Assembly (NCBI GenBank): GCA_002717565.1
Contig: PBAZ01000020.1
Span: 1-52,670 of the forward strand
DNA: 52,670 nt
Origin: Chloroflexota bacterium
Lineage (GTDB): Bacteria; Chloroflexota; Dehalococcoidia; Lucifugimonadales; GCA-2717565
Direction: 5' to 3'
In this document: positions 1 to 28,500 of the stretch, in pieces
How the letters are laid out: each line of letters opens with the position of its first letter
Numbering within the stretch: position 1 is the stretch's first letter
Made by a program: the position numbers and the translations under genes
The notes under the pieces: generated by a model
Database searches by the model: none
Told to the model about the DNA's origin: nothing
Seen by the model: the letters and a program-made list of their open reading frames with translations, nothing else

Positions 1-195
1 ATCACTACTCAAGACCTGATAGCCGAGGGGTTCGATGTGAGAGAGGAGGAGTTCGAGGATCACCCCCACCTATTCGTAGCATCAAAGAGAGAGTGGCAAA
101 CGAACCACCGACTGATGCTACGGATGGCCGGATTTGAGTACGCATATTACCGGGTGAAAGAGGGCTACATCCCAGGATGGGCTTACAAGATATAG
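1..195 (+). CDS. hypothetical protein, 3' fragment (5' end outside window)
   Basis: Frame 1 is open from the window edge to TAG at 193-195 (...GYIPGWAYKI*). The next gene starts 10 nt later. Confidence 0.4.
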   Translation: MTTQDLIAEGFDVREEEFEDHPHLFVASKREWQTNHRLMLRMAGFEYAYYRVKEGYIPGWAYKI

Positions 196-205
196 GAGGA
201 TTGAC

Positions 206-526
206 ATGGAAATCTACTACGAACGGACGATAAATTACCTAATCCGCGTAACCCCAGAGACGCTTCTTAAATACGCACGAAATCACCAGATATGGATCGA
301 GTCTCTCTGGGATGAGGACAAGGTTCCTGCCGAGGACAGAACTCATGATCCCCTGTGGCTTGAAGATATTATTGATGAGCTGGTAGAGGGCGAGATGGGC
401 GAAGAGGAGGTAGGGTGGGGACGGGCAAGAGATCCGCACTTCGACCCTGATGCGCCCGACCCCTTCGAAGGTGGCACCATCCAGGAACTGGAAGAGAACC
501 TGAAACAATTCAAAGAGGAGGACTGA
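206..526 (+). CDS. conserved hypothetical protein (acidic C-terminus)
   Basis: 106-aa ORF. The C-terminus GGTIQELEENLKQFKEED matches SSCTIEELEENLKKFKEED of 33408..33752 in segment B. The N-termini are also alike (MEIYYERTINY / MIITYERTVEY). Confidence 0.7.
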   Translation: MEIYYERTINYLIRVTPETLLKYARNHQIWIESLWDEDKVPAEDRTHDPLWLEDIIDELVEGEMGEEEVGWGRARDPHFDPDAPDPFEGGTIQELEENLKQFKEED

Positions 527-527
527 T
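513..527 (+). repeat. 15-bp direct repeat AAGAGGAGGACTGAT, left copy (flanks the Mini-A-like gene)
   Basis: An identical 15-mer occurs at 1403-1417. It contains an SD-like GAGGAGG plus the TGA stop of the upstream gene. Confidence 0.9.
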
Positions 528-1416
528 GAAGATCCAGTACGACGTGATCAACTTTAGAAAAGACAGGCTTGTCCTCATCGACCAAGCCAACGCAATCATT
601 AAGGAATACCAGGACCAAGGGTTTCTGCTCACACTCAGGCAACTGTACTACCAGTTTGTCGCAAGAGACTTGATCGAGAACACGCAACGATCCTACAAGC
701 GACTTGGTTCGGTGATCAACGATGCGAGAATGGCTGGCAAGATTAGCTGGGAGGCAATCGAGGACCGAACCAGGAACCTTCAATCCCTCGCTCACTGGGA
801 CTCACCCAGCCAGATCGTCGGGGCCTGCGCTGATCAATTCCGATTCGACAAGTGGGAGGATCAGGATGTCAGGGTCGAGGTTTGGTGCGAGAAGGAAGCC
901 CTGATCGGAGTCTTCTCTCGCATCTGCGACGAACTCGATGTCCCGTACTTCGCCTGCCGTGGCTACGTCTCGCAGTCGGAGCAGTGGAGGGCTGGGCGGC
1001 GCTTCATGCACTACCACGACCGTGGCCAGCGCCCGGTTGTCTTGCACTTTGGAGACCATGACCCCAGCGGGATCGACATGACACGAGACAACCTCGAACG
1101 ACTGTCGATCTTCGCTGAGAATGATGTTGAAGTCCGGCGACTTGCACTCAACATGGATCAGGTGGAGGAACACCAGCCCCCACCGAACCCGGCCAAGATT
1201 ACGGACGCGAGGTTCAGAAGCTACGCCTCCAAGTACGGGGAGGAGTCGTGGGAACTCGACGCCCTGCAACCGAGCATGTTGGTCGATCTCGTGCGAGGTG
1301 CCGTGGAAAACCTAAGAGACCAGGATCTCTGGGACGAGGCCGTCTCCAGAGAAGAGGAGGCTCGTGACCGCATTCTGGCTATTGCCAACGATATGCACGA
1401 CGAAGAGGAGGACTGA
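526..1416 (+). CDS. Topoisomerase VI subunit A / Spo11-like protein (5Y-CAP + Toprim, 'Mini-A'-type)
   Basis: 296 aa. Motif LTLRQLYYQF resembles the catalytic-Tyr motif of the 5Y-CAP domain. Toprim-like glutamate in VWCEKEALIGVF and DxD in HFGDHDPSGIDM. No ATPase (B-subunit-like) partner gene is seen nearby. Confidence 0.7.
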   Translation: MKIQYDVINFRKDRLVLIDQANAIIKEYQDQGFLLTLRQLYYQFVARDLIENTQRSYKRLGSVINDARMAGKISWEAIEDRTRNLQSLAHWDSPSQIVGACADQFRFDKWEDQDVRVEVWCEKEALIGVFSRICDELDVPYFACRGYVSQSEQWRAGRRFMHYHDRGQRPVVLHFGDHDPSGIDMTRDNLERLSIFAENDVEVRRLALNMDQVEEHQPPPNPAKITDARFRSYASKYGEESWELDALQPSMLVDLVRGAVENLRDQDLWDEAVSREEEARDRILAIANDMHDEEED

Positions 1417-1417
1417 T
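1403..1417 (+). repeat. 15-bp direct repeat AAGAGGAGGACTGAT, right copy
   Basis: Identical to 513-527. It sits at the stop of the Mini-A-like gene, immediately before ATG 1418. Confidence 0.9.
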
Positions 1418-1705
1418 ATGCGAATGAGCAAGAAAGGGATGCGCGACATGGTGGCGTGGGCTATCAAGTGGTCGCTCCACCCAGGGCGTGACGAGGTTAG
1501 TGTAGTCCGCAGGCTGTCGAGCGGAGAGCAGGCGACACTTGCTTGGAATGAGTTTGTAAAAGAGATGAGGAAGACATGGCCCGGACTATCCTTTATCCTT
1601 GCGAGGGACAATGAGGTGGTCTGTACCCTGAAGAACGACCAAGTCTTCTCGATCAAGATCACGATACCAAGGAGCCCACAACAAGATGACCGAAAAGAAA
1701 AATAG
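1418..1705 (+). CDS. conserved hypothetical protein
   Basis: Internal ATG of ORF 1364..1705, preceded by GAGGAGG. MRMSKKGMRDMVAW...QVFSIKITIPRS parallels MSKKLTKAEMAEIAAW...QTFSIKISMPRT of 33752..33973. ATG 1424 is an alternative start. Confidence 0.65.
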   Translation: MRMSKKGMRDMVAWAIKWSLHPGRDEVSVVRRLSSGEQATLAWNEFVKEMRKTWPGLSFILARDNEVVCTLKNDQVFSIKITIPRSPQQDDRKEK

Positions 1706-2090
1706 CCTCTCGCTATCCTTTAGCATAGGCGGCGAGACTTATCAGACCGATGAGGATGACCACTCGGTTGCCCTATTTGTCACAGGAGATGGGTGCAAGT
1801 CCATCGCCCCACTCGCCGTATTGTTCATCCGTGAATACTGGGACAAGAGGCGTGTTCCCATACCGCAGACAATGCTTGTCGATTTCATAGTGTTTCTTGT
1901 GGCAGACCACGGGATACACCACTCTCGACTCAAGCTGTTCCCGTCTACAATGTACGGACCTGAAACAAATATGGGGCACTTTGTGTTCCACACCACGGGG
2001 AGTGCCATCGAACACTACACCGACACACCTTGGCCGGACCTGATCCACCACAAGGACGTCCTGGTCATAGAGGACGACTCGCATAAATAA
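1686..2090 (+). CDS. hypothetical protein
   Basis: 134-aa ORF, co-oriented, with a 20-nt overlap with the upstream gene. No recognisable motif. Confidence 0.5.
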   Translation: MTEKKNSLSLSFSIGGETYQTDEDDHSVALFVTGDGCKSIAPLAVLFIREYWDKRRVPIPQTMLVDFIVFLVADHGIHHSRLKLFPSTMYGPETNMGHFVFHTTGSAIEHYTDTPWPDLIHHKDVLVIEDDSHK

Positions 2091-2096
2091 AAGGTG

Positions 2097-2125
2097 TTGA
2101 CTTCTCAATTAAAGCAGAGTATTTT
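2097..2125 (+). promoter_or_regulatory. sigma70-type promoter candidate TTGACT-N17-TATTTT
   Basis: -35 TTGACT at 2097-2102, 17-nt spacer, -10 TATTTT at 2120-2125. It lies in a 168-nt intergenic gap upstream of 2259..2633. The same hexamers recur at 38176-38203. Confidence 0.5.
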
Positions 2126-2134
2126 GGTTTCGTT

Positions 2135-2195
2135 GCGCTTAAGAAAGCGCTGATGGTCGCTAATATTAGCGAATATATTCGCTAACTTTCGCAAA
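2135..2195. promoter_or_regulatory. operator-like cluster of palindromes and TCGC(T/A)AA half-sites
   Basis: GCGCTT-AAGA-AAGCGC at 2135-2150. Perfect 16-bp palindrome TCGCTAATATTAGCGA at 2157-2172. Overlapping perfect 14-bp palindrome GCGAATATATTCGC at 2169-2182. Further half-sites TTCGCTAA at 2179-2186 and TTCGCAAA at 2188-2195. All lie just downstream of the promoter candidate. Confidence 0.5.
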
Positions 2196-2258
2196 TATTC
2201 TCTCTCTTTTTCTTCTAGGGATCAGGGAGATAACTGGTAGCAAACACAGGAGGTAGCT

Positions 2259-2633
2259 ATGGCTGATTTTGATAAGGGCGCGTTCGCGCAAGAGGCAGAA
2301 CGGAGACGGGCCGCTGGTCTCAAGATCTTTGGTAAGACGTTTCCGGTCAAGGACAGGATTAAGGAAGGCGGTGGGATCTGGGATTCTCGGATGCGGTGCT
2401 GGCTCCTTCCATCAGAGGAGTTCGCGCTCTCTCTTGGAGCAGAGAAGAAGGAGGGGAAACACGGCGTCTACTGGTTGCTCGGAACCCCAAAGGGGCATGG
2501 CGGCAACGGTGGCGCTCCCTCCTCGACACCGCCTGCGGCGATCCCCACACCCGGACAAGACTGTCCGGCGTGTGGAGGCGAGCCGCTGGACGACCAGCTA
2601 TATTGCTGGGAGTGTGGGTATCGGGGCGCGTAA
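2259..2633 (+). CDS. hypothetical protein with C-terminal zinc-ribbon (N-terminal DUF5710-like module, tentative)
   Basis: 124 aa with RBS AGGAGG. The N-terminal FGKTFPVKDRIKEGGGIWDSRMRCWLLP recalls the small KxxAKxxGARWDxxxKxWxxP module. The C-terminal CPACGG...CWECG is a CxxC...CxxC pair. Confidence 0.55.
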   Translation: MADFDKGAFAQEAERRRAAGLKIFGKTFPVKDRIKEGGGIWDSRMRCWLLPSEEFALSLGAEKKEGKHGVYWLLGTPKGHGGNGGAPSSTPPAAIPTPGQDCPACGGEPLDDQLYCWECGYRGA

Positions 2634-2649
2634 TGAACCTCTTTCCTTT

Positions 2650-2772
2650 GGGGCGATTGCACTGTATCGCCCCGAATGACGTGTCACCTACGTAGTGGTG
2701 AGCCATGAGGAAGCAGAGCCTCGGTGTTAGTCCGGGTGCGACCTGGGCCCCAACTCGGGTCGCACTTTTTTT
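2650..2772 (+). promoter_or_regulatory. conserved structured leader / candidate cis-regulatory RNA, copy A
   Basis: 5' hairpin GGGGCGAT/ATCGCCCC (2650-2673). Core 2681-2724 is GTGTCACCTACGTAGTGGTGAGCCATGAGGAAGCAGAGCCTCGG, near-identical to the reverse complement of 28342-28388. A terminator hairpin plus T-run ends at 2772, 22 nt before GTG 2795. Confidence 0.6.
2736..2772 (+). terminator. intrinsic terminator (3' part of leader copy A)
   Basis: Stem GTGCGACC (2736-2743) pairs with GGTCGCAC (2758-2765), followed by TTTTTTT (2766-2772). Confidence 0.65.
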
Positions 2773-2794
2773 ACAACAACGGTGGAGGTAGCAA

Positions 2795-3016
2795 GTGACC
2801 GACGAGCAAGACAAGGTCATCACGTTTGAGTGCGACTACGAGCCCGAACAAATCAGGACGATCCTGATGGCGATGCCGCAACTCTTTGATGCCCTGTTTG
2901 AGATCCTTAGCTGGCACGAGTCAGCCTTGAAGAACCAGCGGGATGCCTTGGCGAGGTTCCCGCTTCAGTCGATAGAAAAATTAGTAGAAGAGTACGAAAA
3001 GGGAGGTAGTAGATGA
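2795..3016 (+). CDS. hypothetical protein
   Basis: 73-aa ORF with a GTG start preceded by GGAGG (2784-2788). ATGA overlap with the next gene. Confidence 0.5.
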   Translation: MTDEQDKVITFECDYEPEQIRTILMAMPQLFDALFEILSWHESALKNQRDALARFPLQSIEKLVEEYEKGGSR

Positions 3017-4014
3017 CCGACATAGTGACAACCGACCCCAGCCAACCCGTGGAGTCGGCGCAACCACCTGTCCCTGAGACGCAACGAGAGCGCTACTGGG
3101 GGGCAGAAGAGATTTACAAGGGTGCTGGGGAGTTAGAAGTGGATGACGCCACCATGGCCATCCTGATGGCTCCTATAGATGAAAGCATGGTGTGCATCCG
3201 GCCCGATGGTATCGTATATCTGCCGTGGGCGTTCTTCGCAGACCGCTTACGCAAGGCGTTCTCCCTCTCGTGGGCACTGGTCGCTGGCGACAAGCCCGTG
3301 CTGGAGGGGAACCAGGTGATCTGGCTCCATCACCTCCGAATCCGGGGGTGCTACGTTGCAAGTGCTTACGGGCAGTGCAATTACCACGCAAACAATCGGG
3401 GCATGAGCTACGGTGACTCCATAGAAGGGGCCAAGTCCGATGCCCTCACTCGGTGCTGCAAGCCGCTCGGCATTGCAGCAGAGCTTTGGGATCCGGCCTT
3501 CATTCGGGAATGGAAGAAGCGGTGGGCAGAGTCTGGCGGTGGTGGATATGGTGGCAAGTGGCGCAAGAAGCGAGCGGAGGATGTCGGCTGGGATCAGGCG
3601 TTCCTGAACCGAATGGAGACAATGAACCGGAAATACTTCAGGCAGAAGGTGGTCGAGGCTCTCCCCGAGGAGGCACCAAGCAAGAAGGCTCTCCCCGAGG
3701 TGGCTCCGGATCGTGCCCCCAACAGCCCGGAACCTGAGCGTGTTTCTGACACCCCTCTGCACCCAAGCGAGTGCGCGGATGACCTACGCAGCCTGAAGAA
3801 ACAAATCAAAACCGAGATGGGGAAGCACGGGATCAAGCGGCAGCAGTGGAGGCAGGCCCTGAAGATAGCCAGCGAGGGTGCAGTCCACGCATTCCCGGAC
3901 CTGGACAAGCTTGGCCTGGATAATGTGAAAGCTCTCCTCGCAGTCTTCGCCCTTTCGGGCGATCAGGTTGCAGAAAAACTGGTGATAGATGCCAACGAGC
4001 CCAACGCAACGTAG
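3013..4014 (+). CDS. Rad52-like single-strand annealing protein (SSAP)
   Basis: 333 aa. ...SAYGQCNYHANNRGMSYGDSIEGAKSDALTRCCKPLGIAAELWD matches the Rad52/Sak-type pattern G..(x)n..E.A.K.A.tDAlkR..k.lGi..eLw. Long low-complexity C-terminal tail. Confidence 0.6.
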   Translation: MTDIVTTDPSQPVESAQPPVPETQRERYWGAEEIYKGAGELEVDDATMAILMAPIDESMVCIRPDGIVYLPWAFFADRLRKAFSLSWALVAGDKPVLEGNQVIWLHHLRIRGCYVASAYGQCNYHANNRGMSYGDSIEGAKSDALTRCCKPLGIAAELWDPAFIREWKKRWAESGGGGYGGKWRKKRAEDVGWDQAFLNRMETMNRKYFRQKVVEALPEEAPSKKALPEVAPDRAPNSPEPERVSDTPLHPSECADDLRSLKKQIKTEMGKHGIKRQQWRQALKIASEGAVHAFPDLDKLGLDNVKALLAVFALSGDQVAEKLVIDANEPNAT

Positions 4015-4465
4015 CTTGGCGCTACTCAGGAAGCAAGGATATGATCTCGTGCAGGTGGTTGAGAAGTGGGTGCCCCAAGCTCGCAAGCGCATCGACCTCT
4101 TCGGGATCATAGACATTGTTGCAATCCGTAAAGACGTTCCTGGAATACTTGGAATCCAAGCTACTTCGATGGCTAATATCTCGCATCGAATCAGAAAGGC
4201 TCAGGAATCGCCTGCTTACCCGCTGTGGTTGGCCAACGGAAACAGATTTGAAGTGTGGGGATGGGGGAAAAGGGGACCGCGAGGAAAACGAAAACTCTGG
4301 TCAGTAAGGGTGGTGAACGATGCCGACATTCACGTATACGGACGACGAACTCCTGGCGATGATCGAGAGGCAGCCACTCCCGATCACGGCGGGGAGATTC
4401 TCGATACTGCTGAACAATCGAATCTCGAAGGACACAGCATACCGAAGACTCAAGGCGATGACTGA
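3989..4465 (+). CDS. Hjc-like / PD-(D/E)xK-type nuclease (putative Holliday junction resolvase)
   Basis: MPTSPTQRSLALLRKQGYDLVQVVEKW...RIDLFGIIDIVAI...GIQATS has archaeal-Hjc-like layout. Homolog at 40017..40433 (MPSASPTQRSLQLMRSEGY...DFLGFIDILCL...GVQSTS). The start is supported by that homolog. Confidence 0.55.
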   Translation: MPTSPTQRSLALLRKQGYDLVQVVEKWVPQARKRIDLFGIIDIVAIRKDVPGILGIQATSMANISHRIRKAQESPAYPLWLANGNRFEVWGWGKRGPRGKRKLWSVRVVNDADIHVYGRRTPGDDREAATPDHGGEILDTAEQSNLEGHSIPKTQGDD

Positions 4466-4613
4466 GAGGGGCAAGCTGTTGTCCCGAAAGATGAGGCATC
4501 GCCATCACAACATAAGACAAGTCACGGTCTACGGAAACGGAGAGCAGATGGCTGCACTGGATAGGGAGGGAATAAATGGTTTGTGGAAAAGAGAGGGGGA
4601 GTGGTATGGTTAA
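4320..4613 (+). CDS. small winged-helix-like DNA-binding protein (tentative)
   Basis: 97 aa. Homolog at 40351..40650 (QPLPITAGRFSILL... vs QPLPLSAKMIRKLL...). Both overlap the 3' end of the resolvase-like gene out of frame. Confidence 0.5.
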   Translation: MPTFTYTDDELLAMIERQPLPITAGRFSILLNNRISKDTAYRRLKAMTERGKLLSRKMRHRHHNIRQVTVYGNGEQMAALDREGINGLWKREGEWYG

Positions 4614-5103
4614 TGGTGCTACCTCAGAGAGCGTAGCGAGTAGAGTGATGTCAGTCCTCCTCCTCGCTGCGCTTTCTATTTTGGGATGCCGAGCACCCGC
4701 GCCAGTACTTGAGGCCGAGGATTTAGCAACCAAGATAGAGAACGAATACGTCTCCGCAGTCCAAACAAGGCTAACCCAGTGGAGGCAAGAGCTGTCGCAC
4801 TCATGGGAGAAAGAGTTGCGATATGTTCTCGAACGAGAGTTGTCCGCTAAAGCCGATGACTCGGGGAAGGTGACCGTCGATGACGTTCTTTCTCTCCTCG
4901 CTCTCCAAGGAGAGGCGAGAGAGAAGAACGTGCAACGTCTGGCCCTTGAGGGAGAAGCTGACCAGGCAGCAACCGCTGGCTGGCGAGAGAGCAGACGCAT
5001 CCGAGATTCTGTCCGGCGATGGATGGAGGCAGGGATGACGCAAGAACAAAAGGACAAGATCTATTCCACTGTACTGGAGGTGGCAAGTGACCGGGAGAGA
5101 TAA
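4606..5103 (+). CDS. putative lipoprotein, conserved in both segments
   Basis: Signal-like ...RVMSVLLLAALSILGC followed by RAPAPVLEAEDLA. The segment B homolog has ...LALLLLPSC followed by QAPAPIIEAQDLA. The start is chosen at ATG 4606 after GGGGGAG; 4576 and 4648 are alternatives. Confidence 0.55.
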   Translation: MVNGATSESVASRVMSVLLLAALSILGCRAPAPVLEAEDLATKIENEYVSAVQTRLTQWRQELSHSWEKELRYVLERELSAKADDSGKVTVDDVLSLLALQGEAREKNVQRLALEGEADQAATAGWRESRRIRDSVRRWMEAGMTQEQKDKIYSTVLEVASDRER

Positions 5104-5383
5104 GCAAAAGATTCGGGCAAACGTGAAGCGAATCTTAATCGAGATAGACAAGGCCGCTCGTGCGGTCGAGGAAAGTGATTCTCCCTTCGACGCAGTAGGA
5201 TCGACAGATGCTCGATTCATATCCGCAGAAGGGGCCTACAAGACAATGTTAGAGGAGGTGAATTGGGAACAAGTTTCTACCGTTATCAACACGATAAATG
5301 AACGTAACTGGCGCGACGAGGAGTATGCGAAAATCCTCACGGCCATGGTGGCTTGCGCCAGCAAGATCGCAGCAATCGCATAA
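5087..5383 (+). CDS. conserved hypothetical protein
   Basis: 98 aa. C-terminal ...NERNWRDEEYAKILTAMVA parallels ...ESRTWADEEYAKAAAFLVQ of 41094..41408. Confidence 0.6.
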   Translation: MTGRDKQKIRANVKRILIEIDKAARAVEESDSPFDAVGSTDARFISAEGAYKTMLEEVNWEQVSTVINTINERNWRDEEYAKILTAMVACASKIAAIA

Positions 5384-5401
5384 ACAAGGAGAGGTAGCAA
5401 G

Positions 5402-5977
5402 ATGATTAAGCGTTTTAAGATTGAGATTACGGGGACGACCCCACTGATCTGCAACAGGTTCACTGATGAGGCTTCGCTTGCGGCAGGCTCCAGCGAACGG
5501 GGGGCGGTGACCCTCTCAGAGATGACTCCCATGGAGGAGTCGGAGACGAAGCTCTACAAGAACGAGGATGGAAGCCTGATGATTCCAGGTGCCAACCTCA
5601 TGGCTTGCGTGACGGAGGGCGGCAAGTTCTTCAAGATCGGGAAGAACAAAGTCACCACACTGAAGACCAGCATGGTCTCTGGGGCCGTGATGATGGAGAC
5701 CGTAACCATCCCGCTCCAGTCCAGAGAGGGGTGGACAGTGGACACTCGTCCCGTCCGAATCCCTACCACTGGCGGGAGAATCCCCAGGCACCGACCGATC
5801 TTCAACGATTGGGTGCTGGCATTCGAGTGCGAACTCGATGCGTCCCTCATCTCCCCCAAGATGTTTCGAGAGATCGTTGACGCCGCCGGAAAACGGATCG
5901 GCCTCGGTGATTTCCGTCCAGCTTGCAAGGGGATGTACGGGAAGTTCAAAGTAACCAAATGGGAGAACGGAGCGTAA
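5402..5977 (+). CDS. hypothetical protein (weak RAMP/RRM-like features, unverified)
   Basis: 191 aa with RBS AGGAGAGG. Strings FKIEITGTTPLICNRF, LMIPGANLMACV and the glycine-rich IGLGDFRPACKGMYGKFKV are noted. No counterpart in segment B. Lies 67 nt upstream of the pentamer array. Confidence 0.6.
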   Translation: MIKRFKIEITGTTPLICNRFTDEASLAAGSSERGAVTLSEMTPMEESETKLYKNEDGSLMIPGANLMACVTEGGKFFKIGKNKVTTLKTSMVSGAVMMETVTIPLQSREGWTVDTRPVRIPTTGGRIPRHRPIFNDWVLAFECELDASLISPKMFREIVDAAGKRIGLGDFRPACKGMYGKFKVTKWENGA

Positions 5978-6043
5978 GCTCCGGGCACGTAGCGCCCGGC
6001 CACAGGCTGGGCGCTTCATGCCATGACTCCAAAGATCTATTAC

Positions 6044-7007
6044 GGCGGTGCGGGGCGGGGCTTGGCAGCGACTGGCAAGGTAGGGCTTGGCCTGGCACGG
6101 CAAGGTGCGGCAAGGTTCTTCCACAGATTCAACGCGGCGATGCTGGGCGAAGTAAGGCTGGGTCTGGCACGGTGAGGCCAGGCGCGGCGGGGCAAGGCGC
6201 GGCAAGGCAACGCACGGTTCTTCCACTACAAATTCAACGCGGCAATGCCCGGCAACGCTTGGCAAGGCTGTGCTGGGCAGCGCGAGGTTAGGCACGGCAA
6301 GGCTATGCTGGGCAGCGCGGGGCCTGGCAAGGCAAGGTACGGTTTCTCCTACGAATTCAACGAGGCTTGGCTGGGCCAGGTGAGGCCAGGCTTGGCGAGG
6401 TATGGTATGGCATCGCATGGCAAGGTAAGGTTCTTCCATTACAAATTCATCGGGCCCTGGCTGGGCAGGGCCAGGCATCGCCAGGCAGGGCTGGGCGAGG
6501 CGTTGCCGGGCAGGGCCAGCCAACGCAAGGCAAGGCAAGGTACGGTTCTCTCATGCACAACTTTCTGGGCGAGGCCCCGCCGGGTTTGGCAGGGCAAGGT
6601 CCGGCAAGGCGGCGCGAGGTTAGGCGCGGCAATGCGAGGCAAGGCAAGGCAAGGCGAGGATTCTCTCATGCAGATTCAACAGACGGGACGCGGCACGGCA
6701 AGGCTTGGCTAGGCAGGGCGTGGCACGGCTTCGCATGGCTAGGCATGGCGGGGCCGGGCCCGGCGGGGCAACGCAACGCAAGGCATGGTTCTCTCATTAC
6801 AAGTTCAACTCGGAAGGGCGGGGCCGGGCTTGGCACGGCGGGGCACCGCAAAGCGGGGCCGGGCTAGGCAACGCTCGGCAAGGCATGGCGAGGTTAGGCG
6901 AGGCAACGCATGGTTCTCTCATACGCAACTTTCCCGCCGAGGTCTGGCAGGGCGAGGCCGGGATAGGCAAGGCGAGGTTAGGCAAGGCTGGGCAAGGCAA
7001 GGCAAGG
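6044..7007 (+). repeat. non-coding array: nine blocks of phase-locked GGCNN pentamers (about 150 units) separated by eight anchors TTCTYYCAYNNCAANTTCAAC
   Basis: Anchors at 6116-6133, 6218-6238, 6343-6361, 6431-6451, 6546-6566, 6661-6680, 6789-6809 and 6914-6934. Anchor start spacing is 102, 125, 88, 115, 115, 128 and 125 nt. Blocks parse into 13-20 consecutive pentamers with G-G-C fixed and positions 4-5 variable. G-rich on the + strand. Ends inside the RBS of 7017..7553. Confidence 0.9.
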
Positions 7008-7016
7008 AGTATTAAG

Positions 7017-7553
7017 ATGACACAGTCAACACCAGAACAATTCATTCACTGGTTTCGAGAGGCGATGAACTACCAGCTTGGCGTGAGGTACTCACCCGAC
7101 TGGAAGAAAGACACCGCTCGTGCGAGGGAACTCCTCCAGGATTTTGGGGAGGATACTCTCAAGCAAATGTCTCGGGCTTTAATAGAAGATCCCGACGAGT
7201 TTTCAAGGAGCAAGACGGGGGTCTCTATCCAGCGACTCTACGCAAGGCGCAATCATCTTGCGCAGTCCCTGGTAAAACCGAAGATGTCCGTAGCCTGCGG
7301 AGGGCCCAAGCTCACACTCGAACAGGTGGACTGGAGAATCAAGTACATCGAGGACATGCTGGATAAGCCAACCATGGGGCCCGAACACCCATACTCCCCG
7401 AAGAGAGAGGACTACCTAAAACTACACGACTACTACACTCGGATGAGGCCGAGAGCAGAGGCAGAGTCTAACGCCCAAAAAGAGAAGTGGGGGGTGGTGG
7501 ACCAAGACCCGGACCCAACGGCTGCGATTGCGGAGCAGATGCGTTCCGATTAG
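7017..7553 (+). CDS. hypothetical protein
   Basis: Internal ATG 7017 of ORF 6705..7553, preceded by AAGGAG (7004-7009). The part of the ORF upstream of 7017 is pentamer-array translation. 178 aa, no recognisable motif, no counterpart in segment B. Confidence 0.6.
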   Translation: MTQSTPEQFIHWFREAMNYQLGVRYSPDWKKDTARARELLQDFGEDTLKQMSRALIEDPDEFSRSKTGVSIQRLYARRNHLAQSLVKPKMSVACGGPKLTLEQVDWRIKYIEDMLDKPTMGPEHPYSPKREDYLKLHDYYTRMRPRAEAESNAQKEKWGVVDQDPDPTAAIAEQMRSD

Positions 7554-10500
7554 GGACTGGGTCCGGGGACCCCACCCCAGGCCCCGGCTTCACGGGCTTT
7601 GTCTTCGGGGTCTTCCCCTTCAGAAGCTCGTTGTAATGGCGAAGCATCTCGGAAGCCTCTGGGGGCAGCTCGCCCTTACCAAAGAAGACCTCCAGCTTTC
7701 CGACATCCCCGGCTCGAACTTGATCCTTCAGCCACTCCCCGAGCTGCCTCCTAAGCTCCCTGTCCTGGTTCACCGTGGCGATGCGAATACCGCTCGAACT
7801 TTCCATTACCCTGGAAGCCCAACCCTTCCTCTCGTCCAGCACCCGGTCAATCTCCGTACTCAACCGATTAAATGGGGTCAACCCCAACAACGGGTGAAAC
7901 CAACGAGGTACTTTGTAGTAATCCTTTCCCGCCTTCGAGGTCTCCTTCGTGAGAAGACCGGAAGCGGTGAGGGCCTTTTCCATTCCGGGCAACTGCGTCA
8001 TCCACGCAGGAGCGCGGCGATAATCGCCAAGCTCTGTTCCGAAGTAGAGGTTTCGGTTTGTCCCGTACTCGACAATCCCCTGTAGCCACGGATGAAGGGC
8101 CGAACCAACAGCGACCCTCGTCCAGTCAGCGGGGGTAACACCCTTGCCCGTTACCGCCGCCCTCACATCCCCGAACCCCGACAAGAGCAGGTCTACATCC
8201 TCGTGGATCAGGCCGAAAGATGTGAGGAACATCATGTTCCCCTCCTTGTCTAATCCAATGGGCAGCGCCGTCTTTCCACTGAGCCACTCCGGGACCAACT
8301 CCCCCTCGGTTCCCCTCATCGAGTGCGTGGCCTTCATGAGTGGCGTCACGGTGCCGGGCCTCGTAAGGGCTTGCTCCATCACAACAGGCAAGGTTCCTTT
8401 TCTAAAAGCGAGGAACGGAAAAACTGATCTCAGGTTCCTGTCAAATTCGGACGTAAATTTGTAGTCCACATGGATTCTGTTTACCCTCTCTGATGCGTTC
8501 TTGGCAGAGATGCCCTTGCTACGCATGGACAGGAAGCTGTTGATCCGCATGGTATCCTCGACAGCGGATGCAATGCGGCGAGGCAGCGTGTTGTTCTTGA
8601 TAGCCAGCCAGATGTCCCGAGGAAGATTCTTGGGAGGGTCATCACTCGTCCCACGCAGCGCCTTCCGCACCTGCTCCAGGACTTTCGGGTCTTGGATTCG
8701 CTGCTTGAAAAGCTCGACCGCCGCGTAGTCCTTTCCGACGATACTGTTCGCCGCGATTTCCCTGTACATCTCCACCGGAGAAAGCCCAGCAATCTTGGCT
8801 CCAGATTTCTCTAATTCCTGGAGCGCCAGCGCCGAGGGGTTATTGTTTTTGAGTAGCCTCGCATAGACCCCGTCGAAGTCTTCCACCCACGGAGATCGAA
8901 GCTCTGCACTTTCGAGGGCCTTTCTGAAGAGACGCACTTCTTTTGCCTTGGTTGTCTGGAATGGGGCGCTCATCCAGCGAGTCAAAGGGAAGTCGTGCAT
9001 GAGTGTCAACAGGGGGCGAACCGCATCAGCGGCAGAAGTAGACGGGTCCATTAGCGCCTGCACCATTCCACCCATCAGGTTTCTGGTAGAGAACGCGAGG
9101 AACGGGACACCACCAATACCCACCGTCATGCTCTGCTTCAGCCAGTGATTGACGCTGTCCCACTGCCTACCAAACTCGCTCCTCCGGCCAAGACCCTTCA
9201 GTGCCTCCCGAACGAAAGCCTCCGCTCCCTCTACGGGCCACTCGACCTGCCCTATGTTGCGGATCGACTTGAGATCTTCGTCTGTAAACCCACCAACTTT
9301 TTTGAGAACTTCCCTCTGCTCGTCGATTGCTATCTCCAGCGCCCTTATTTCTTCCGGCGAGAGGTTTCCCCGATTGTCCAGCAGGCTTTGGAGGCGTTCA
9401 AATTCAAACTCCTCGAACCGGACGTCATCCAGCTTCCCGCCCCACGCGGCGAGCGACTGCTCGGCTCCCGGTCTTCTGCCGATTATGGATGCCGCCTCCT
9501 CCAGGAACATCTTGTTTGTCATCGCCCGGTTATGGGCGGTCTGCCTGCGCAATATCAGGTCGAAGAGGTCTTCCTTTGCGGGGTCTGTCACAACCTTAGA
9601 GGGTGTTATCCCAGCCCTCTCTGCCAGATCCACGATGGCTTTCCTGAAATCCTCCACGCTCCCGGTCTCTCTGAACTTTTCGTAAGCGGTTTCCGCGCCT
9701 GATGCGGAGAACGTCTGACCACCCTTTCCCCGCCCAGTAGACCGAGCAATCAACTCCGAAAGCTCCGTGTTCATCTGCGTGGGCATGTAGAAATTCAGGC
9801 CAATCCTCCCGAAGCGCCTCCCGACCTCGACCTTCTCCTTCGCAGCCTTGCCGCCCAGCCGAGGACCAAGAACATGAGGAGGAAGCGGCTTGCGTTTTGC
9901 CTTCTCTGCCTTCGAGGTTGCCAGCATCTTCCAGTCATCCTGGGCTTCCCGGAGCATCTTGCGGTGGTGCTTGTGAATCCAATCCTGGAGCTTGACCAGA
10001 TCGTCCCTGATCTCTGACGCCTGCTCTGCGGTCCACCCAGCCGCCCCCCGCCGAGACTCAACCACCCTGTCCGCAATGCCGTCGAACTTGGCGGTAATGA
10101 GATCGTCAACCCTGGATTGCAGGTTGTCGTACATCATTCCATACCCAAGCTCCAAGTCGCCACCTCCCAACTCCTCGGCCACTTGCCTGGAAAAGAACAA
10201 GCCTTCCCGCTTCTTGCGCTTCTTCCCCTTCTTCACAACCTCGCCCATCGAATACGAGTACCCAGACGGACTACGCAGATCTCCGTAAGCAGTCTTGATG
10301 AGGTCGTCCATCTCCTTCATGCCGAAGACTTCTTCGAATGACTTCTTAAGTTCTTTGGTTGTATCTGGATCAAAGCCCCCAAACACCCGGTTTAGTATTG
10401 CCGTGAAGTCCTTGGCGTTTCGGTACTGGAGTTCCTGGGACGCTCTCGCCGCGTCTTCCAGTCGATAAAGAAGACCCCTATCACCCTTGGCTATCCCGCG

Positions 10501-11622
10501 TAACTTTCCGTGCATTGGGTTGAACAGCTTCCGAATGGTTGCATCGAAAGGCATTCTCATTGCCTCCTGCACCTTGGGCGCAAACCTACCCGCTGCCTGG
10601 TATGCCCACCCCGGCCCGGTCGCTTTCTCTAAGAGCTTCCCAGCCGGACCCGCCCAGAACCCACGATTGGCGAGGGTCTCATCGAAAGCACCGCCAAGAC
10701 TTGACAAGAGCCTTGGCTCCATAGCTCCCTCCTCGATTAGCCCCAGGGCGCGAAGTGGTGCGCGAATCAACCAAGGATCGTATCGCAAGCCAGCCTTCAG
10801 GATGTCCCCGGACTCTTCGAGTCCCTGTAGGGTTGCGATGTAGCCTTCGGGGTCTGCGGATTGACCCATCTTCTTCATCACAATCCTCGCCGCCTCTTCC
10901 TCTATATCCGCACCCTTGGCAATTTTAACCTTCCCGGAAGGGCCGCCGACAAACGTGGGGCGAACTTTAGACGCTTCATCCAATGCGTCCTGCCACCGTG
11001 CCCTCCCCGCCTTGGTGGTGGAGAGCGCCGTGCTTAGATCGCCAGCCCAGTTGGGCATCTTCTTGAGGCTTTTCACCCCCCTGGCCATGGCGATTGCCCT
11101 GGCCGTAGAACTTCCCCCAAGGGCCACGCGACTGAGGGGATCAAGAAAGAGACCGCCAACAATATCAATCCCCGCCCTGAGCCCACGGTGCCGTGGGGCA
11201 CCTATCCCGACATCTTCAAGAACCTCGCTGACAGTGGGCTGCTCTTCTCTACTGGCGAACCTAGTGCCGAGCCCGGTTATGGGGTCCAGCGTGACAGCAC
11301 CCGTAGCCGTATCGGCAAGGTTCTTGATTGCCGCGCCAGGACGCAAACGCAAGAGATTCAGGAGAGCGTACCCCGGTCCACCGAAAGTGCGACCAAGTTT
11401 CCCAAGAAAGGTCTCGGCTTGTTCCTCCTCCAGTTTCTTGCGAATCTCGTCCTCTTCCATCCTCCTCCTGACCCGCTCCTCTGCCGCCTGCTCTACGTTC
11501 GGGCCTGCAAAGATAGGCGATCTCCCGGAGGGGAAGAGATTCCCCCCAAGTGGACTGGCCGCCCCCGGAGATCCCCCAAAGGGATCGCCGGGTACTCGGT
11601 GCTCGTCTATACGAAGTCCCAT
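7468..11622 (-). CDS. large virion-associated protein (putative internal/ejection protein)
   Basis: 1384 aa, the last gene of the - strand virion operon. N-terminal (MGLR..., ...TLDPITG...), central (FSTRNLMGGMVQALMDP...AADAVRP...LMHDFPLTRW) and C-terminal (...GR*) regions match 43036..50016. Confidence 0.6.
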   Translation of the reverse strand: MGLRIDEHRVPGDPFGGSPGAASPLGGNLFPSGRSPIFAGPNVEQAAEERVRRRMEEDEIRKKLEEEQAETFLGKLGRTFGGPGYALLNLLRLRPGAAIKNLADTATGAVTLDPITGLGTRFASREEQPTVSEVLEDVGIGAPRHRGLRAGIDIVGGLFLDPLSRVALGGSSTARAIAMARGVKSLKKMPNWAGDLSTALSTTKAGRARWQDALDEASKVRPTFVGGPSGKVKIAKGADIEEEAARIVMKKMGQSADPEGYIATLQGLEESGDILKAGLRYDPWLIRAPLRALGLIEEGAMEPRLLSSLGGAFDETLANRGFWAGPAGKLLEKATGPGWAYQAAGRFAPKVQEAMRMPFDATIRKLFNPMHGKLRGIAKGDRGLLYRLEDAARASQELQYRNAKDFTAILNRVFGGFDPDTTKELKKSFEEVFGMKEMDDLIKTAYGDLRSPSGYSYSMGEVVKKGKKRKKREGLFFSRQVAEELGGGDLELGYGMMYDNLQSRVDDLITAKFDGIADRVVESRRGAAGWTAEQASEIRDDLVKLQDWIHKHHRKMLREAQDDWKMLATSKAEKAKRKPLPPHVLGPRLGGKAAKEKVEVGRRFGRIGLNFYMPTQMNTELSELIARSTGRGKGGQTFSASGAETAYEKFRETGSVEDFRKAIVDLAERAGITPSKVVTDPAKEDLFDLILRRQTAHNRAMTNKMFLEEAASIIGRRPGAEQSLAAWGGKLDDVRFEEFEFERLQSLLDNRGNLSPEEIRALEIAIDEQREVLKKVGGFTDEDLKSIRNIGQVEWPVEGAEAFVREALKGLGRRSEFGRQWDSVNHWLKQSMTVGIGGVPFLAFSTRNLMGGMVQALMDPSTSAADAVRPLLTLMHDFPLTRWMSAPFQTTKAKEVRLFRKALESAELRSPWVEDFDGVYARLLKNNNPSALALQELEKSGAKIAGLSPVEMYREIAANSIVGKDYAAVELFKQRIQDPKVLEQVRKALRGTSDDPPKNLPRDIWLAIKNNTLPRRIASAVEDTMRINSFLSMRSKGISAKNASERVNRIHVDYKFTSEFDRNLRSVFPFLAFRKGTLPVVMEQALTRPGTVTPLMKATHSMRGTEGELVPEWLSGKTALPIGLDKEGNMMFLTSFGLIHEDVDLLLSGFGDVRAAVTGKGVTPADWTRVAVGSALHPWLQGIVEYGTNRNLYFGTELGDYRRAPAWMTQLPGMEKALTASGLLTKETSKAGKDYYKVPRWFHPLLGLTPFNRLSTEIDRVLDERKGWASRVMESSSGIRIATVNQDRELRRQLGEWLKDQVRAGDVGKLEVFFGKGELPPEASEMLRHYNELLKGKTPKTKPVKPGPGVGSPDPVPNRNASAPQSQPLGPGLGPPPPTSLFGR

Positions 11623-11626
11623 CTAA

Positions 11627-11938
11627 CTATGCGAACGGAAGGTTTCCTGGTCCGGCTCCTGGGGGCAGGCCGGGCGGCACCAACCCTGGGGGGAGTTCCG
11701 GGGGCATCCCTGGGGGCTGGATCGAAGCCGCCATTAGCTCCTCTTCGAGGGGAGCATCCACTGGAGGAGCTGCCGCCCCCAACGAAGCCATGAGGGCTTC
11801 CTCCAAGCCAGGAGGTGGACCCTGATTGGCACCTTCCCCGGATATTTCGCTCCTAAGGAAAGAACTCACAACGTCACCCATCACCTGGGCTTCCATCAGA
11901 ACCTTTAACGCATCCGCTACTGATTGTGGATATGGCAT
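11627..11938 (-). CDS. Pro/Gly-rich small virion-module protein
   Basis: 103 aa. Same position and composition as 50020..50310. Confidence 0.5.
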   Translation of the reverse strand: MPYPQSVADALKVLMEAQVMGDVVSSFLRSEISGEGANQGPPPGLEEALMASLGAAAPPVDAPLEEELMAASIQPPGMPPELPPGLVPPGLPPGAGPGNLPFA

Positions 11939-11941
11939 CGC

Positions 11942-13429
11942 TTACCTACCTTCCATCATTATTTTGATTTGATCCCGCAACTCTTTTGCACTGGGCGACG
12001 AACCCGTGATCTTCGGCCCCAGGAGGTTCTCCCTGCTTTGATCATCGAGGCCGAACATCGGGTGGGCCAACAGTATCTTGAAGAATGATTTGTCAAGTTC
12101 TCGGCGTTTTGTGCGCTTAAAGCCTACGCCGAATGCCTGCCCCAGAACACCCTGAACGATCTTGTCCCTTCTAGACCCCTCACCGCCCCGGCCAATTTCA
12201 AGGTTCTCGTATCCGGGAACAATGATCCTGAGAATGTCCCGCCCTGGATCAGCAATGGCGGTTGCCAGAGCTGCCAAGTCCATCCCATTTGGGCGAGTCT
12301 CTTCAATATACGCCTTCACTTGCTGGGCAATGTTATTAACAACCTCAGTGGCCCCTGGGTCTTCCGCAAGATCTTCGGCAATTCCCGACGGGTAAAGCCC
12401 ACCAGAAACATTCGCCATCCAGTCGGCGAGATCATCGTAGAGAGCCTGCATCCTTGCGGTCTTTCCGTGATTCAGGACGGCCTCTCTCTGCTGGAGATTG
12501 TCCAACTCTGCGAATGTCTTTGGCTTAATTACGCCGAGGTACTCCATCACCTCAAGCTGAATAGCTTGCGGCATCCTGCTAAATTCGCCGCCTGCCATGT
12601 CAAGAGCCGCTCTCGCCCTTTCGCCAAGCTCTCCGGGAATGGCCGCGATCCGCGCCGCTCCTCTTCCAGCTTTTTGCTCGGCCTTCCAAAGGCGCTCCCT
12701 CTGATCGTTTATTTTCCATAGGCCGAGATTGAATTCCCTTCTCTTCCACGCCTCGGCATCTTCACGTCTCTGCAGTTGGTCCTCTCGGGTATCCCTGTAT
12801 CTCTGCTGGGCATCCTCGTATGTGCGATCCCGCCAGTCCATGGACTCCTTGTGCTTCTCCTCTTCCCTCCTCATAGCTCGGATCTGGCGAATCATGTCGA
12901 AGTTCTTCCTGGGGATCATGACCGGACCCTGGCCGAAATCAACCTCGACAAGCTCGTCCTGCTGCTTCTCCTTCCTTCTCGCCCTAGCCTGGGCCTCTTC
13001 CTCTCCACGGATGCCAAGCTGTGCGGCGCGAAGCTTGGCAGCCCTCAGTGGTTCCCCGGCATCATACCTCGCCTGCTCCCTCTCCCGCTCCGCAGCATAT
13101 CTTTCCTGAGCGGAACGGTACCTCGACTGCTCTCTCGCCCGCATCTGTTGCGACTCGATCAGCTTGGCGCGAAGAGCGTCCCGCTGACGCTCCTCGCGCT
13201 GCTCTGCCAGAGACGCCTGCCTCGCAAACTGTTGTTGGGCAAGGCCCATCTTCTGGAGTTCCCGCCGAGACCTTGCAGCCTCCTGGGCTTGCTGCTGCTC
13301 TAACTGCTCGCGAGCAATCTGATCCCGCAATACAACATTCTGTCTCTGTGTTTCTGCACCAAACTCAGCAGGAGTGTATTTCCCATAAGGATTCATCCCG
13401 CTAAGAGTCCACGCCGTATATGGAGGCAT
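11942..13429 (-). CDS. Arg/Glu/Gln-rich coiled-coil virion-module protein (putative internal protein)
   Basis: 495 aa. The N-terminus MPPYTAWTLSGMNPYGKYTPAEFGAE matches MPPYKAWTITPRALYGDYKPEEYQAE of 50322..51500. Confidence 0.6.
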   Translation of the reverse strand: MPPYTAWTLSGMNPYGKYTPAEFGAETQRQNVVLRDQIAREQLEQQQAQEAARSRRELQKMGLAQQQFARQASLAEQREERQRDALRAKLIESQQMRAREQSRYRSAQERYAAEREREQARYDAGEPLRAAKLRAAQLGIRGEEEAQARARRKEKQQDELVEVDFGQGPVMIPRKNFDMIRQIRAMRREEEKHKESMDWRDRTYEDAQQRYRDTREDQLQRREDAEAWKRREFNLGLWKINDQRERLWKAEQKAGRGAARIAAIPGELGERARAALDMAGGEFSRMPQAIQLEVMEYLGVIKPKTFAELDNLQQREAVLNHGKTARMQALYDDLADWMANVSGGLYPSGIAEDLAEDPGATEVVNNIAQQVKAYIEETRPNGMDLAALATAIADPGRDILRIIVPGYENLEIGRGGEGSRRDKIVQGVLGQAFGVGFKRTKRRELDKSFFKILLAHPMFGLDDQSRENLLGPKITGSSPSAKELRDQIKIMMEGR

Positions 13430-13467
13430 CTACCTATTCCCCTCTAATAACTTGATCTGCATGTCGA

Positions 13468-14604: not shown

Positions 14605-14613
14605 CCCGACCTC

Positions 14614-14955
14614 CTACGCCAAATCCTTGCGGACGTGTGCCTGGAAGGTAACCTTCGCTCCAGACAAGTCCGTGGGTGTTCCGTTCTTAGTCACCTGAAT
14701 CCTGAGTGTGTCCCCAACCGCAAGGTATTTGTTCGTTGCGTTCAGGGTACCCAGGTCGTATTCCGTGTTCGCCGCTATCTCCGCACCGCTCGTGGTTTTA
14801 GCAGATGCCAACAATGCGGTACTCGCATTCTTGTATGCGTCGAACTGCCAATTGTCCGACCCACTGGACGATGTGGTCGCAGTATCAGACACAATGCTGA
14901 GTTTCGTCAGCACCGATTTGACTGTCACCGATCCGAGTAATTGGTTCTCTGGCAT
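14614..14955 (-). CDS. hypothetical virion-module protein
   Basis: 113-aa ORF, Ser/Thr-rich, tightly packed in the operon. Confidence 0.5.
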   Translation of the reverse strand: MPENQLLGSVTVKSVLTKLSIVSDTATTSSSGSDNWQFDAYKNASTALLASAKTTSGAEIAANTEYDLGTLNATNKYLAVGDTLRIQVTKNGTPTDLSGAKVTFQAHVRKDLA

Positions 14956-15218
14956 TATCCCGTAACCCCATCTGATTGTATTTGCAGGGTAACATATTCG
15001 ACAACCCTGGATGATTCCAGCGTTGAGATCTTCGGCACCCTCTGCACACCCATCTGGTTGTCCGTAAGGTCAGTCATGATGTCTGGGTCGAGATAGTCCG
15101 TTCCGATCCCATTCGCCATAACCTGGTAAATATTGTCTATATCCTGTTGGATCAACTCAAGAGACACTGCATTCAGGGGTGCCACCTGATTTCTTCCTGA
15201 TCTGGCTATCTTAACCAT
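14955..15218 (-). CDS. hypothetical virion-module protein
   Basis: 87-aa ORF with 1-nt overlaps on both sides. Confidence 0.5.
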   Translation of the reverse strand: MVKIARSGRNQVAPLNAVSLELIQQDIDNIYQVMANGIGTDYLDPDIMTDLTDNQMGVQRVPKISTLESSRVVEYVTLQIQSDGVTG

Positions 15219-17703: not shown

Positions 17704-17705
17704 GG

Positions 17706-28270: not shown

Positions 28271-28290
28271 TCACTCTTCTCCTTTTATCT

Positions 28291-28419: not shown

Positions 28420-28500
28420 GAAGACATGATACAAACAACACCCAGTAAAAAAAATCCCAAAATCCACGAAATATACTGTTGAAGTTTTAAATCTCGATGT

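Follow-up and report, generated by a model that had tools for sequence, protein, structure and literature searches.

A pseudoknot RNA motif found in phages and distant bacteria that may set read-through of terminators ahead of two operons in an uncultured marine phage

What is the short segment that occurs twice, on opposite strands, ahead of two operons in the genome of an uncultured marine phage? The DNA in question, 52,670 nt of contig PBAZ01000020.1 (assembly GCA_002717565.1), is referred to below as the window, and the two occurrences as copies A and B. The phage has been assembled repeatedly from Tara Oceans samples, and a megablast search of GenBank phages with both window regions gave no match, hence no close relative there. 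A preliminary description presented the two copies as a leader of two hairpins that ends in an intrinsic terminator. The question is whether the segment functions as DNA or as a folded RNA and, if the latter, whether the RNA acts on the terminator beside it or in some other way.

Copies A and B were read and aligned along a common core, GTGTCACCTAC..AGTGGTGAG..GAGGAAGCAGAGCCTC. The aligned core runs through GUGUCACCUAC, GU in copy A or CCA in copy B, AGUGGUGAG, CCAU or UCCA respectively, and GAGGAAGCAGAGCCUC; the flanks are otherwise unrelated. A covariance model built exclusively from other genomes matched copy A at 2675–2726 on the plus strand (58.3 bits, E = 1.4e-13) and copy B at 28393–28341 on the minus strand (57.0 bits, E = 3.1e-13). 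Since the next-best score in the 52.7-kb window was only 11 bits, there are exactly two copies, on opposite strands. A 43-nt degenerate pattern of the core was absent from all of 100 dinucleotide-preserving shuffles of the window. Alignment, shuffles and model scores together bear out the proposal of two copies with a near-identical core.

The family to which the copies belong was surveyed by exact-pattern scans, and the covariance model was applied to the recovered loci (cited here by L numbers). The exact-pattern scan drew 6 viral, 29 genome and 86 metagenome contigs. Removal of about 11 chance matches left approximately 89 non-redundant copies, the model added divergent second copies, and 92 distinct copies were aligned. 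From this alignment the core, about 50 nt in length, is an H-type pseudoknot formed by stems S1 and S2, followed by a linker and a hairpin, P2, and this structure is well supported. Formally, S1 and S2 could also be read as two mutually exclusive hairpins. The pseudoknot part occupies about 25 nt in the order S1-5′, G, S2-5′, U, S1-3′, (N)AGU, S2-3′, with loops of 1, 1 and 3–5 nt; S1 comprises 3–5 bp and S2 is UCACC/GGUGA. On the 3′ side of S2 lie GCC and about 2 nt, then P2 (4–6 bp) with the loop R-AGCAGA-N. The GCC is almost invariant, and the base that follows it is A in 39 of 87 copies.

In copy A (plus strand), S1 pairs 2679–2682 with 2690–2693 (ACGU/ACGU) and S2 pairs 2684–2688 with 2697–2701 (UCACC/GGUGA); the linker GCCAU at 2702–2706 leads into P2, which pairs 2707–2710 with 2719–2722 around the loop AAGCAGAG. 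In copy B (minus strand), S1 pairs 28388–28386 with 28378–28376 (GGU/ACC), S2 pairs 28384–28380 with 28370–28366 and is followed by the linker GUCCA, and P2 pairs 28360–28357 with 28348–28345, again around AAGCAGAG. The family alignment thus replaces the two independent hairpins first proposed by a pseudoknot and a hairpin. The loop of the first proposed hairpin does differ between the copies, as described, but it is not free, holding as it does the 3′ arm of the covarying S1. The outer CC..GG extension of the second proposed hairpin did not hold up either, pairs 5–6 being paired in only about 32% of family members.

The evidence for this fold is comparative. Compensatory changes were found in all eight pairs of S1 and P2, including each of the four core pairs of P2, across the 92 distinct model-aligned sequences, and seven of the eight pairs show double changes within a set of 32 gap-free sequences. 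Among the 92 copies, 91.5% of cells are paired, compared with 67% in shuffles, and none of 500 shuffles reached 91.5%. Pairing dropped to 29–50% when the register was slid. One position of S1 is AU in 29 copies, GC in 28 and CG in 25. A hand sum over six well-supported pairs gave about 16 G-U and 2 A-C combinations on the sense strand; since G-U is common and A-C rare, the folded strand is the sense RNA. The preliminary description had set compensatory change, sought by a covariance-model search of relatives, against conservation of primary sequence alone as the mark of a DNA site. The changes found in all S1 and P2 pairs are the opposite of the latter pattern and, together with the G-U excess, identify a structured RNA as distinct from a protein-binding DNA repeat.

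The case for S2 is of a different kind. S2 is invariant in the sampled set, partly since the search pattern fixed it, and two scans of viral contigs with the S2 positions left free revealed no natural S2 variants, only chance matches beyond the known members. Support comes from the perfect complementarity of two invariant strands and from two variant copies. One of these carries the divergent UCACAC/GUGUGA, and the other has a continuous hairpin in place of the pseudoknot with S2 kept. In addition, RNAalifold independently chooses UCACC/GGUGA, along with GAGG/CCUC, on energy grounds.

These data also bear on whether the segment could act at the level of DNA, as a protein-binding site, a single-stranded DNA hairpin signal or a mobile repeat. 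Such an element would suit a location in or beside control regions and a cassette that is polymorphic among relatives, as found here (see below). It would not explain why interleaved pseudoknot helices covary, why G-U pairs are tolerated on one strand only, or why the motif is mostly co-oriented with the upstream gene. Moreover, the core is conserved over distant lineages and the flanks are unrelated, so that the motif is not a recent mobile copy. We therefore consider a DNA-level role very improbable. On the same grounds, a repetitive extragenic palindrome (REP) or miniature inverted-repeat transposable element (MITE) is unlikely.

Does the folded RNA correspond to a class already described? 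None of the 4227 models of Rfam 15 matched in the window at gathering thresholds. With the threshold relaxed to E values of up to 10, both copies gave chance matches only (ctRNA_pGA1 on the terminator, SNORA17, and NsiR1 on the U-run), and in 27 other loci nothing overlapped the motif. ARAGORN detected no tRNA or tmRNA anywhere in the window, nor at the motif in 24 loci; genuine tRNAs occur only as neighbours, in L033, L049 and L032. A published description of the motif was not found by sequence-string search, which returned unrelated primers only, or by topical search, one 2026 preprint on the mining of non-coding RNAs lying outside that scope. The Rfam scan, proposed as a check in the preliminary description, agrees with its statement that the element fits no known RNA family. 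The motif is a previously unannotated structured-RNA family.

Some local resemblances were considered and dropped. The string GAAGCAG occurs in domain IV of signal recognition particle RNA and in the 1067 loop of 23S rRNA; in the present motif it forms the loop of a hairpin whose stem covaries. A fold like that of the hepatitis delta virus (HDV) ribozyme was rejected because the order of the helices is different. UCACCU is the 3′ tail of 16S rRNA, and the idea that the motif mimics a Shine-Dalgarno (SD) or anti-SD sequence was not retained.

Members of the family come from marine, freshwater, hypersaline, soil and groundwater samples. Phage-like sources include IMG/VR contigs and a prophage with SSB and TerL genes in the isolate Phenylobacterium ferrooxidans (L030). 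Other sources look chromosomal, namely metagenome-assembled contigs of the Patescibacteria or candidate phyla radiation (CPR) type, in one of which ClpC-like, MraY-like, DUF192 and RecR genes surround the motif. The family thus spans phages, a prophage and CPR-type chromosomal contigs, and the element is not specific to this phage. At least two copies within a few hundred nt to 3 kb of each other are common (L021, L023, L027, L032, L070, L076, L082, L091, L096 and L127). No true member was found in INPHARED phages or PLSDB plasmids by short-query blastn, a search of limited sensitivity. Candidates from the Sinorhizobium phiM12 group and from Vibrio campbellii scored about 10 bits with the covariance model and are not members.

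In some lineages the conserved RNA may be larger than the 54-nt core. The 52 nt on the 5′ side of the motif fold more stably than shuffled sequences (mean −11.6 compared with −9.4 kcal/mol; Wilcoxon p = 2.5e-7), and their sequence is not conserved. Many copies have an A-rich stretch resembling AAAACGA 8–12 nt before S1. A Uhrbacteria-type subfamily, represented by L098 (6314–6665), carries the motif in an intergenic stretch about 350 nt long, together with six or more other hairpins and a recurrent AAAACGA.

What, then, surrounds the motif at the two sites of the window? Copy A is placed between two cistrons. Its accessory 5′ hairpin, GGGGCGAU..AUCGCCCC (2650–2673, plus strand; minimum free energy and centroid folds), begins 16 nt past the stop codon of a 124-aa open reading frame (ORF) at 2259–2633. 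At 11–12 nt 3′ of P2 stands an intrinsic terminator (2734–2772, plus strand) with a 14-bp stem and U7 at 2766–2772 (−24.1 kcal/mol, z −3.7), whose hairpin at 2734–2767 is the strongest terminator-like site listed for 1–20 kb. The first gene 3′ of copy A, at 2783–3016 on the plus strand, has the ribosome-binding site (RBS) GGAGG and a GTG start at 2795 and encodes 73 aa. Next after it (3013–4014, plus strand) comes the gene for a single-strand annealing protein (SSAP) of the Mgm101/Rad52 type (Pfam E = 6e-32).

Copy B sits in a divergent control region, in the leader of the packaging/structural operon and ahead of the genes for a terS-like protein, the large terminase and the portal. Its accessory 5′ hairpin, GUAUCAUG..CGUGAUAC, is predicted by folding at 28432–28413 (minus strand). 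Only 1 nt separates P2 from the intrinsic terminator at 28343–28294 (minus strand), which has its stem at 28343–28305 and U9 at 28302–28294 (−23.4 kcal/mol, z −4.3). This terminator ranks third among T-run-linked hairpins in a crude ranking of the whole window, and its loop is too long for the terminator scan of 1–20 kb. The terS-like gene at 27569–28285 (minus strand; RBS AAGGAG, ATG at 28270, 233 aa) heads the terminase/portal/structural operon.

The U-runs end 22 nt (copy A) and 23 nt (copy B) before GTG 2795 and ATG 28270. This gap fits an RBS alone and has no space for a separate promoter, and so expression of the downstream gene must traverse the terminator. On all these points the preliminary description was accurate: both copies are followed by a strong terminator hairpin with a T-run, the distance to the start codons is exact, and the genes concerned are the first of an SSAP-containing operon and of the terS-like/terminase/portal operon. 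A 5′ hairpin is likewise present at both copies, that of copy B lying partly outside the segment first delineated. The window offers promoter candidates of consensus level only, and no promoter could be recognised for copy A. Within the structural operon there is another terminator-like hairpin, at 21140–21116 (minus strand).

Some features of the window stand apart from the two copies and their genes. Between 28440 and 28900, upstream of terS, there are conserved boxes in common with the relatives L001 and L013–L015, comprising GCTGATTTTAACATCGAGAYTT, repeated ATCAGCG/CGCTGAT half-sites and a long GCCCCGA..TCGGGG hairpin; they are probably phage-repressor operators. A separate SSB gene is found at 34924–35271 (plus strand), in the other plus-strand block. 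An ORF of 2326 aa at 43036–50016 (minus strand) has a faint tape-measure-like PHROG match, and its counterpart in L153 is larger (3349 aa). The GC content jumps from 54–60% over positions 1–18000 to 41–50% over 18000–52670, so that copy A lies in a high-GC and copy B in a low-GC portion; this change in composition near 18 kb suggests a mosaic genome or a chimeric assembly.

With terminators of this strength and position, an attenuator or antiterminator role, as first proposed, is a reasonable reading of the sequence. We tentatively favour, as the best-supported reading though at less than even confidence, a cis-acting RNA domain whose fold sets the read-through of the adjacent terminator, in the manner of a riboswitch or of a ‘tug-of-war’ between neighbouring structures. 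The domain would be transcribed as part of the mRNA, intercistronically at copy A and in the packaging/structural operon leader at copy B, and would fold stably, alone or aided by a ligand or host factor. Once folded, it would compete at the RNA exit channel with the terminator hairpin as the latter nucleates, and the polymerase would then read into the operon. When the domain is unfolded, transcription would halt 22–23 nt before the start codon. An effect on termination efficiency, its direction and the identity of any partner are what we infer in this scheme. The two operons may also be co-regulated, as the preliminary description had proposed.

Across the family, a terminator-like hairpin with a U-run lies within about 120–135 nt 3′ of 28 of 85 copies, compared with 13% of random positions and 17% on the antisense side. 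This enrichment, like the fold, the terminators and their geometry, is shown by the sequences. A looser detector found such a terminator at 34 of 86 copies, plus two in which P2 itself abuts a U-run (about 42% in all). Since only this fraction of members is followed by a terminator, the terminator is an optional platform and not a part of the motif; the preliminary view that the leader ends in one holds for both window copies and not for the family at large. The spacer between P2 and the terminator is at most 5 nt in 11 of the 34 cases and 6–15 nt in 7; the other 16 have longer spacers, which usually contain an extra hairpin. In L063, P2 and U6 form the terminator and an RBS follows immediately. 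In the L021 subfamily the core is succeeded by further hairpins; one of these, which covaries between the two copies of L021, places an SD sequence in the loop and the start codon in the stem. Some genomes thus combine the core with terminators and others with SD-containing hairpins, and one aptamer with several expression platforms is a pattern typical of riboswitches.

Other findings sit poorly with control of an adjacent terminator. About 58% of members have no recognisable intrinsic terminator, and no alternative pairing that overlaps the core and the terminator was found. The 11–12-nt spacer of copy A exceeds the range of less than 5 nt for a tug-of-war. Downstream genes are unrelated (terS-like, the 73-aa ORF of the SSAP operon, SSB, a MoxR ATPase, a MYG1 exonuclease, DUF192 and many unknowns), a mixture not usual with a metabolite riboswitch. 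When the ORFs up to 6 kb away on both sides were clustered all against all at 89 loci, no co-occurring protein emerged; the largest protein family was present at 12 loci, all of one CPR subfamily. With ORFs filtered by G1–G2 periodicity, a gene calling that is still imperfect, the upstream neighbour is co-oriented with the motif in a ratio of 57:17 and the downstream neighbour in one of 45:26, so that the upstream gene fits better. Of the 60 cases that could be scored on the same calls, 20 have a convergent gene next. Finally, some members look autonomous, with a promoter and a terminator of their own (L015, L018 and L091), and at site A a relative without the motif, L153, still has a long hairpin with a weak U-tract.

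Some of these points raise the alternative that the motif belongs to a stand-alone small RNA of about 100–180 nt, made from its own promoter and acting in trans as a decoy, a sponge or a partner of a conserved host machine. The hairpin and U-run would then merely end the RNA, and the downstream genes of the window would be expressed by leaky read-through. In L091 a promoter, TGGTATAAT, lies about 22 nt 5′ of the motif, and in L015 one lies about 33 nt 5′; in L015/L016 the promoter reads TTTACT-N16-TGaTAGAAT and forms a unit with the motif and a terminator that is inverted relative to terS. In L018 and L091 the succession of promoter, RNA and terminator is followed by a new promoter, and in the CPR-type L050 some 170 nt of AT-rich DNA separate the RNA and its terminator from the next gene. 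The convergent neighbours would also suit an autonomous transcript. However, more than half of the copies have no terminator and lead into an ORF that begins tens to a few hundred nt further on, loci with several copies, each before a different gene, are common, and a conserved target in trans is not evident. Copy A, moreover, starts only 16 nt past a stop codon and has no recognisable promoter. Weighing both sides, we regard a trans-acting small RNA as rather unlikely.

Two stretches associated with motif copies are of separate interest. In L091, about 700 nt between a TATAAT-type promoter and a clean terminator (2130–2850, minus strand) are flanked by two motif copies; this region has no Rfam match and, by eye and without an ORF scan, no obvious reading frame, and it may be a large non-coding RNA or a gene in an alternative genetic code. 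In the CPR-type L027, about 1 kb (4100–5058, minus strand) contains many hairpins, and on the motif strand its ORFs are all short (at most 75 aa) and overlap. It carries two motif copies, one of them the non-pseudoknot variant, and lies next to genes that we take, from their translations, to be HU-like and YmdB-like.

Relatives of the phage show how the motif behaves at the two sites. L001 (terS 61% identical) has at site B both the motif and the terminator stem, with a shorter terminator loop and a spacer of at most 5 nt. At the same site L013/L014 (terS 77% identical) have neither motif nor terminator, and the region is unstructured (z = +0.9). L015/L016 (terS 51% identical) have a promoter, the motif, an extra hairpin and a terminator in inverted orientation (approximately 250–440, minus strand), and their P2 shows the compensatory GGUGG/CCACC. 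At site A, L153/L154 (SSAP 74% identical, with the same flanking genes and RBS) lack the motif, and a long hairpin of about 21–25 bp with the weak U-tract stands in its place. At both sites, close relatives that are otherwise syntenic differ in whether they have the cassette, have it inverted or lack it, and by this comparison it behaves as an exchangeable module, a trait that would also suit a small-RNA gene. With respect to control of the adjacent terminator, the absence of any stable structure before terS in the motif-less L013/L014 suggests that the module travels as a unit at site B. A protein-guided locus search in viral contigs gave no contig with the SSAP query and one with the terS-like query. 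As regards annotation, the terS-like homologue of L015 (P0006, 369–1220, 283 aa) is called too long in the database, its spurious N-terminal part overlapping the inverted motif; its real start is a GTG near L015:530, giving MIHKTKAQALELP.

Members next to tRNA genes raise another possibility, that the motif is an RNA processing element, either a new class of self-cleaving ribozyme or a mimic of the substrate of a universal RNase, which would split polycistronic phage mRNAs or set stable ends. In L049, a Pedobacter contig of 429 nt, the motif begins 5 nt past the 3′ end of tRNA-Arg(TCT) (region 161–280, minus strand), and in L033 (3909–4346) two tRNAs precede it by about 200 nt. Many unpaired nucleotides of the compact core are invariant, both copy A and the prophage copy of L030 lie between cistrons, and small ribozymes are typically found in unrelated contexts, in several copies per genome and in phages. 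The near-invariant GCC, with its frequent A, has a further parallel. The tRNA-like acceptor-arm pseudoknots of viral RNAs of the turnip yellow mosaic virus (TYMV) type are substrates of RNase P; in these a hairpin loop pairs with the strand just 3′, an unpaired purine follows and then CC, and S1/S2 with GCC have the same topology. They differ in that the S1/S2 pseudoknot is not at the 3′ end of the RNA, has no conserved CCA and is followed by P2. Recognition by RNase P would, furthermore, leave the invariant UCACC/GGUGA and the AGCAGA loop unexplained, and adjacency to tRNAs is limited to two or three loci. Neither ARAGORN nor Rfam, even at E values of up to 10, matched the motif to a tRNA-like model, and no known self-cleaving ribozyme (hammerhead, twister, twister-sister, pistol, hatchet or HDV-like) was matched by Rfam in the window, in both copies or in 27 other loci; none lies nearby. 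A role in processing seems improbable to us on this balance.

The remaining alternative takes up the comparison with phage HK022 made in the preliminary description. Here the nascent RNA, folded as a pseudoknot and hairpin, would bind RNA polymerase, and adjacent and distal terminators would be bypassed without any phage protein, as with put. In the window, two opposite-strand copies stand ahead of operons and upstream of strong terminators, as do putL and putR; the promoters are candidates of consensus level only, and copy A is intercistronic. A core that is near-invariant across very different lineages, with no co-occurring protein, would suit a universal partner such as RNA polymerase. Some copies are promoter-proximal (L091 and L015), the extra hairpin at 21140–21116 would offer a distal terminator within the structural operon, and a mechanism of this type does not require a terminator beside every copy. 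Yet unconditional antitermination would render the adjacent terminator pointless, since every arriving transcript already carries the motif, and in many cases the motif comes last in its transcription unit, with a convergent gene next. Given also the lack of structural or sequence similarity to put, we think an RNA of this kind doubtful, with a low probability.

Whichever partner is involved, the near-invariant nucleotides across lineages point to a universal one, such as RNA polymerase, the ribosome, RNase P or a common metabolite. It is possible, though short of probable, that the motif is the first described member of a new functional RNA class, whether a riboswitch or aptamer that links a general cellular signal to terminators, a second, unrelated and protein-independent ‘put’ that binds RNA polymerase and reprograms termination, or a small self-cleaving ribozyme. 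The conservation of such a class would extend from genomes of the Patescibacteria type to the phages and prophages of other bacteria. If truly undescribed, it would add a compact and highly conserved pseudoknot to the few structured RNAs common to phages and distant bacteria, with more than 90 natural variants available to guide experiments. In the window the motif stands where transcription enters the recombination operon and the packaging/structural operon, and it may show how operons are timed in an uncultured marine phage that has no recognisable N- or Q-type protein. Identification of the partner would be of general interest and could yield a portable part for the control of termination.

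How does the motif compare with known systems? It resembles HK022 putL/putR in consisting of two related cis-acting RNAs on opposite phage strands, ahead of operons and terminators, with no dedicated protein evident and a universal machine as the plausible target. The put RNAs are about 70–73 nt, V-shaped, with two long stem-loops of which the first is a triplex, and are confined to lambdoid phages of gamma-proteobacteria (PMC9378689). The present motif, in contrast, is a pseudoknot of about 25 nt with a short hairpin, has no sequence similarity to put and is spread beyond lambdoid phages. Its consensus, with stems of 4 and 5 bp and a hairpin of 4–6 bp, does not fit the put architecture, and the motif is not a put homologue.

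The nut and pR′-qut-tR′ systems of phage lambda are similar in that leader elements stand before terminators at the heads of phage operons. P2 is, like boxB, a hairpin with a conserved loop and a covarying stem. The loop of boxB differs from that of P2 in both sequence and size, and in the lambda late leader qut is a DNA site. The window contains 20 matches to boxA where 23 are expected by chance, none of them near either copy, and no N, Q, sigma factor or RNA polymerase genes were recognisable by PHROGs or Pfam among 40 window ORFs, most of which are unannotated. The motif is not a nut homologue, and, compared with the pR′-tR′ leader named in the preliminary description, no Q protein is recognisable here.

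In its arrangement the motif also resembles leader or attenuator riboswitches, and these offer a parallel in the core itself, an aptamer-like domain that is conserved in its junctions and loops and whose helices covary. A coherent regulon, which they would also lead one to expect, did not emerge, no protein family being present in more than 12 of the 89 loci within 6 kb. The geometry has a precedent as well. Termination at an intrinsic terminator is suppressed by stable structures, a pseudoknot among them, that lie less than 5 nt before it, and natural ZTP riboswitches employ this ‘tug-of-war’ design (Bushhouse, Fu and Lucks 2026 preprint, PMC13307975). The copy A spacer, the intervening hairpin or missing terminator of most members and the incoherence of the downstream genes all depart from it. 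The likeness lies in a stable structure that stands 0–5 nt before a strong terminator (ΔG < −15 kcal/mol) with no overlap in sequence, an arrangement matched exactly by copy B (1 nt, −23 kcal/mol) and by 10 other members of the family.

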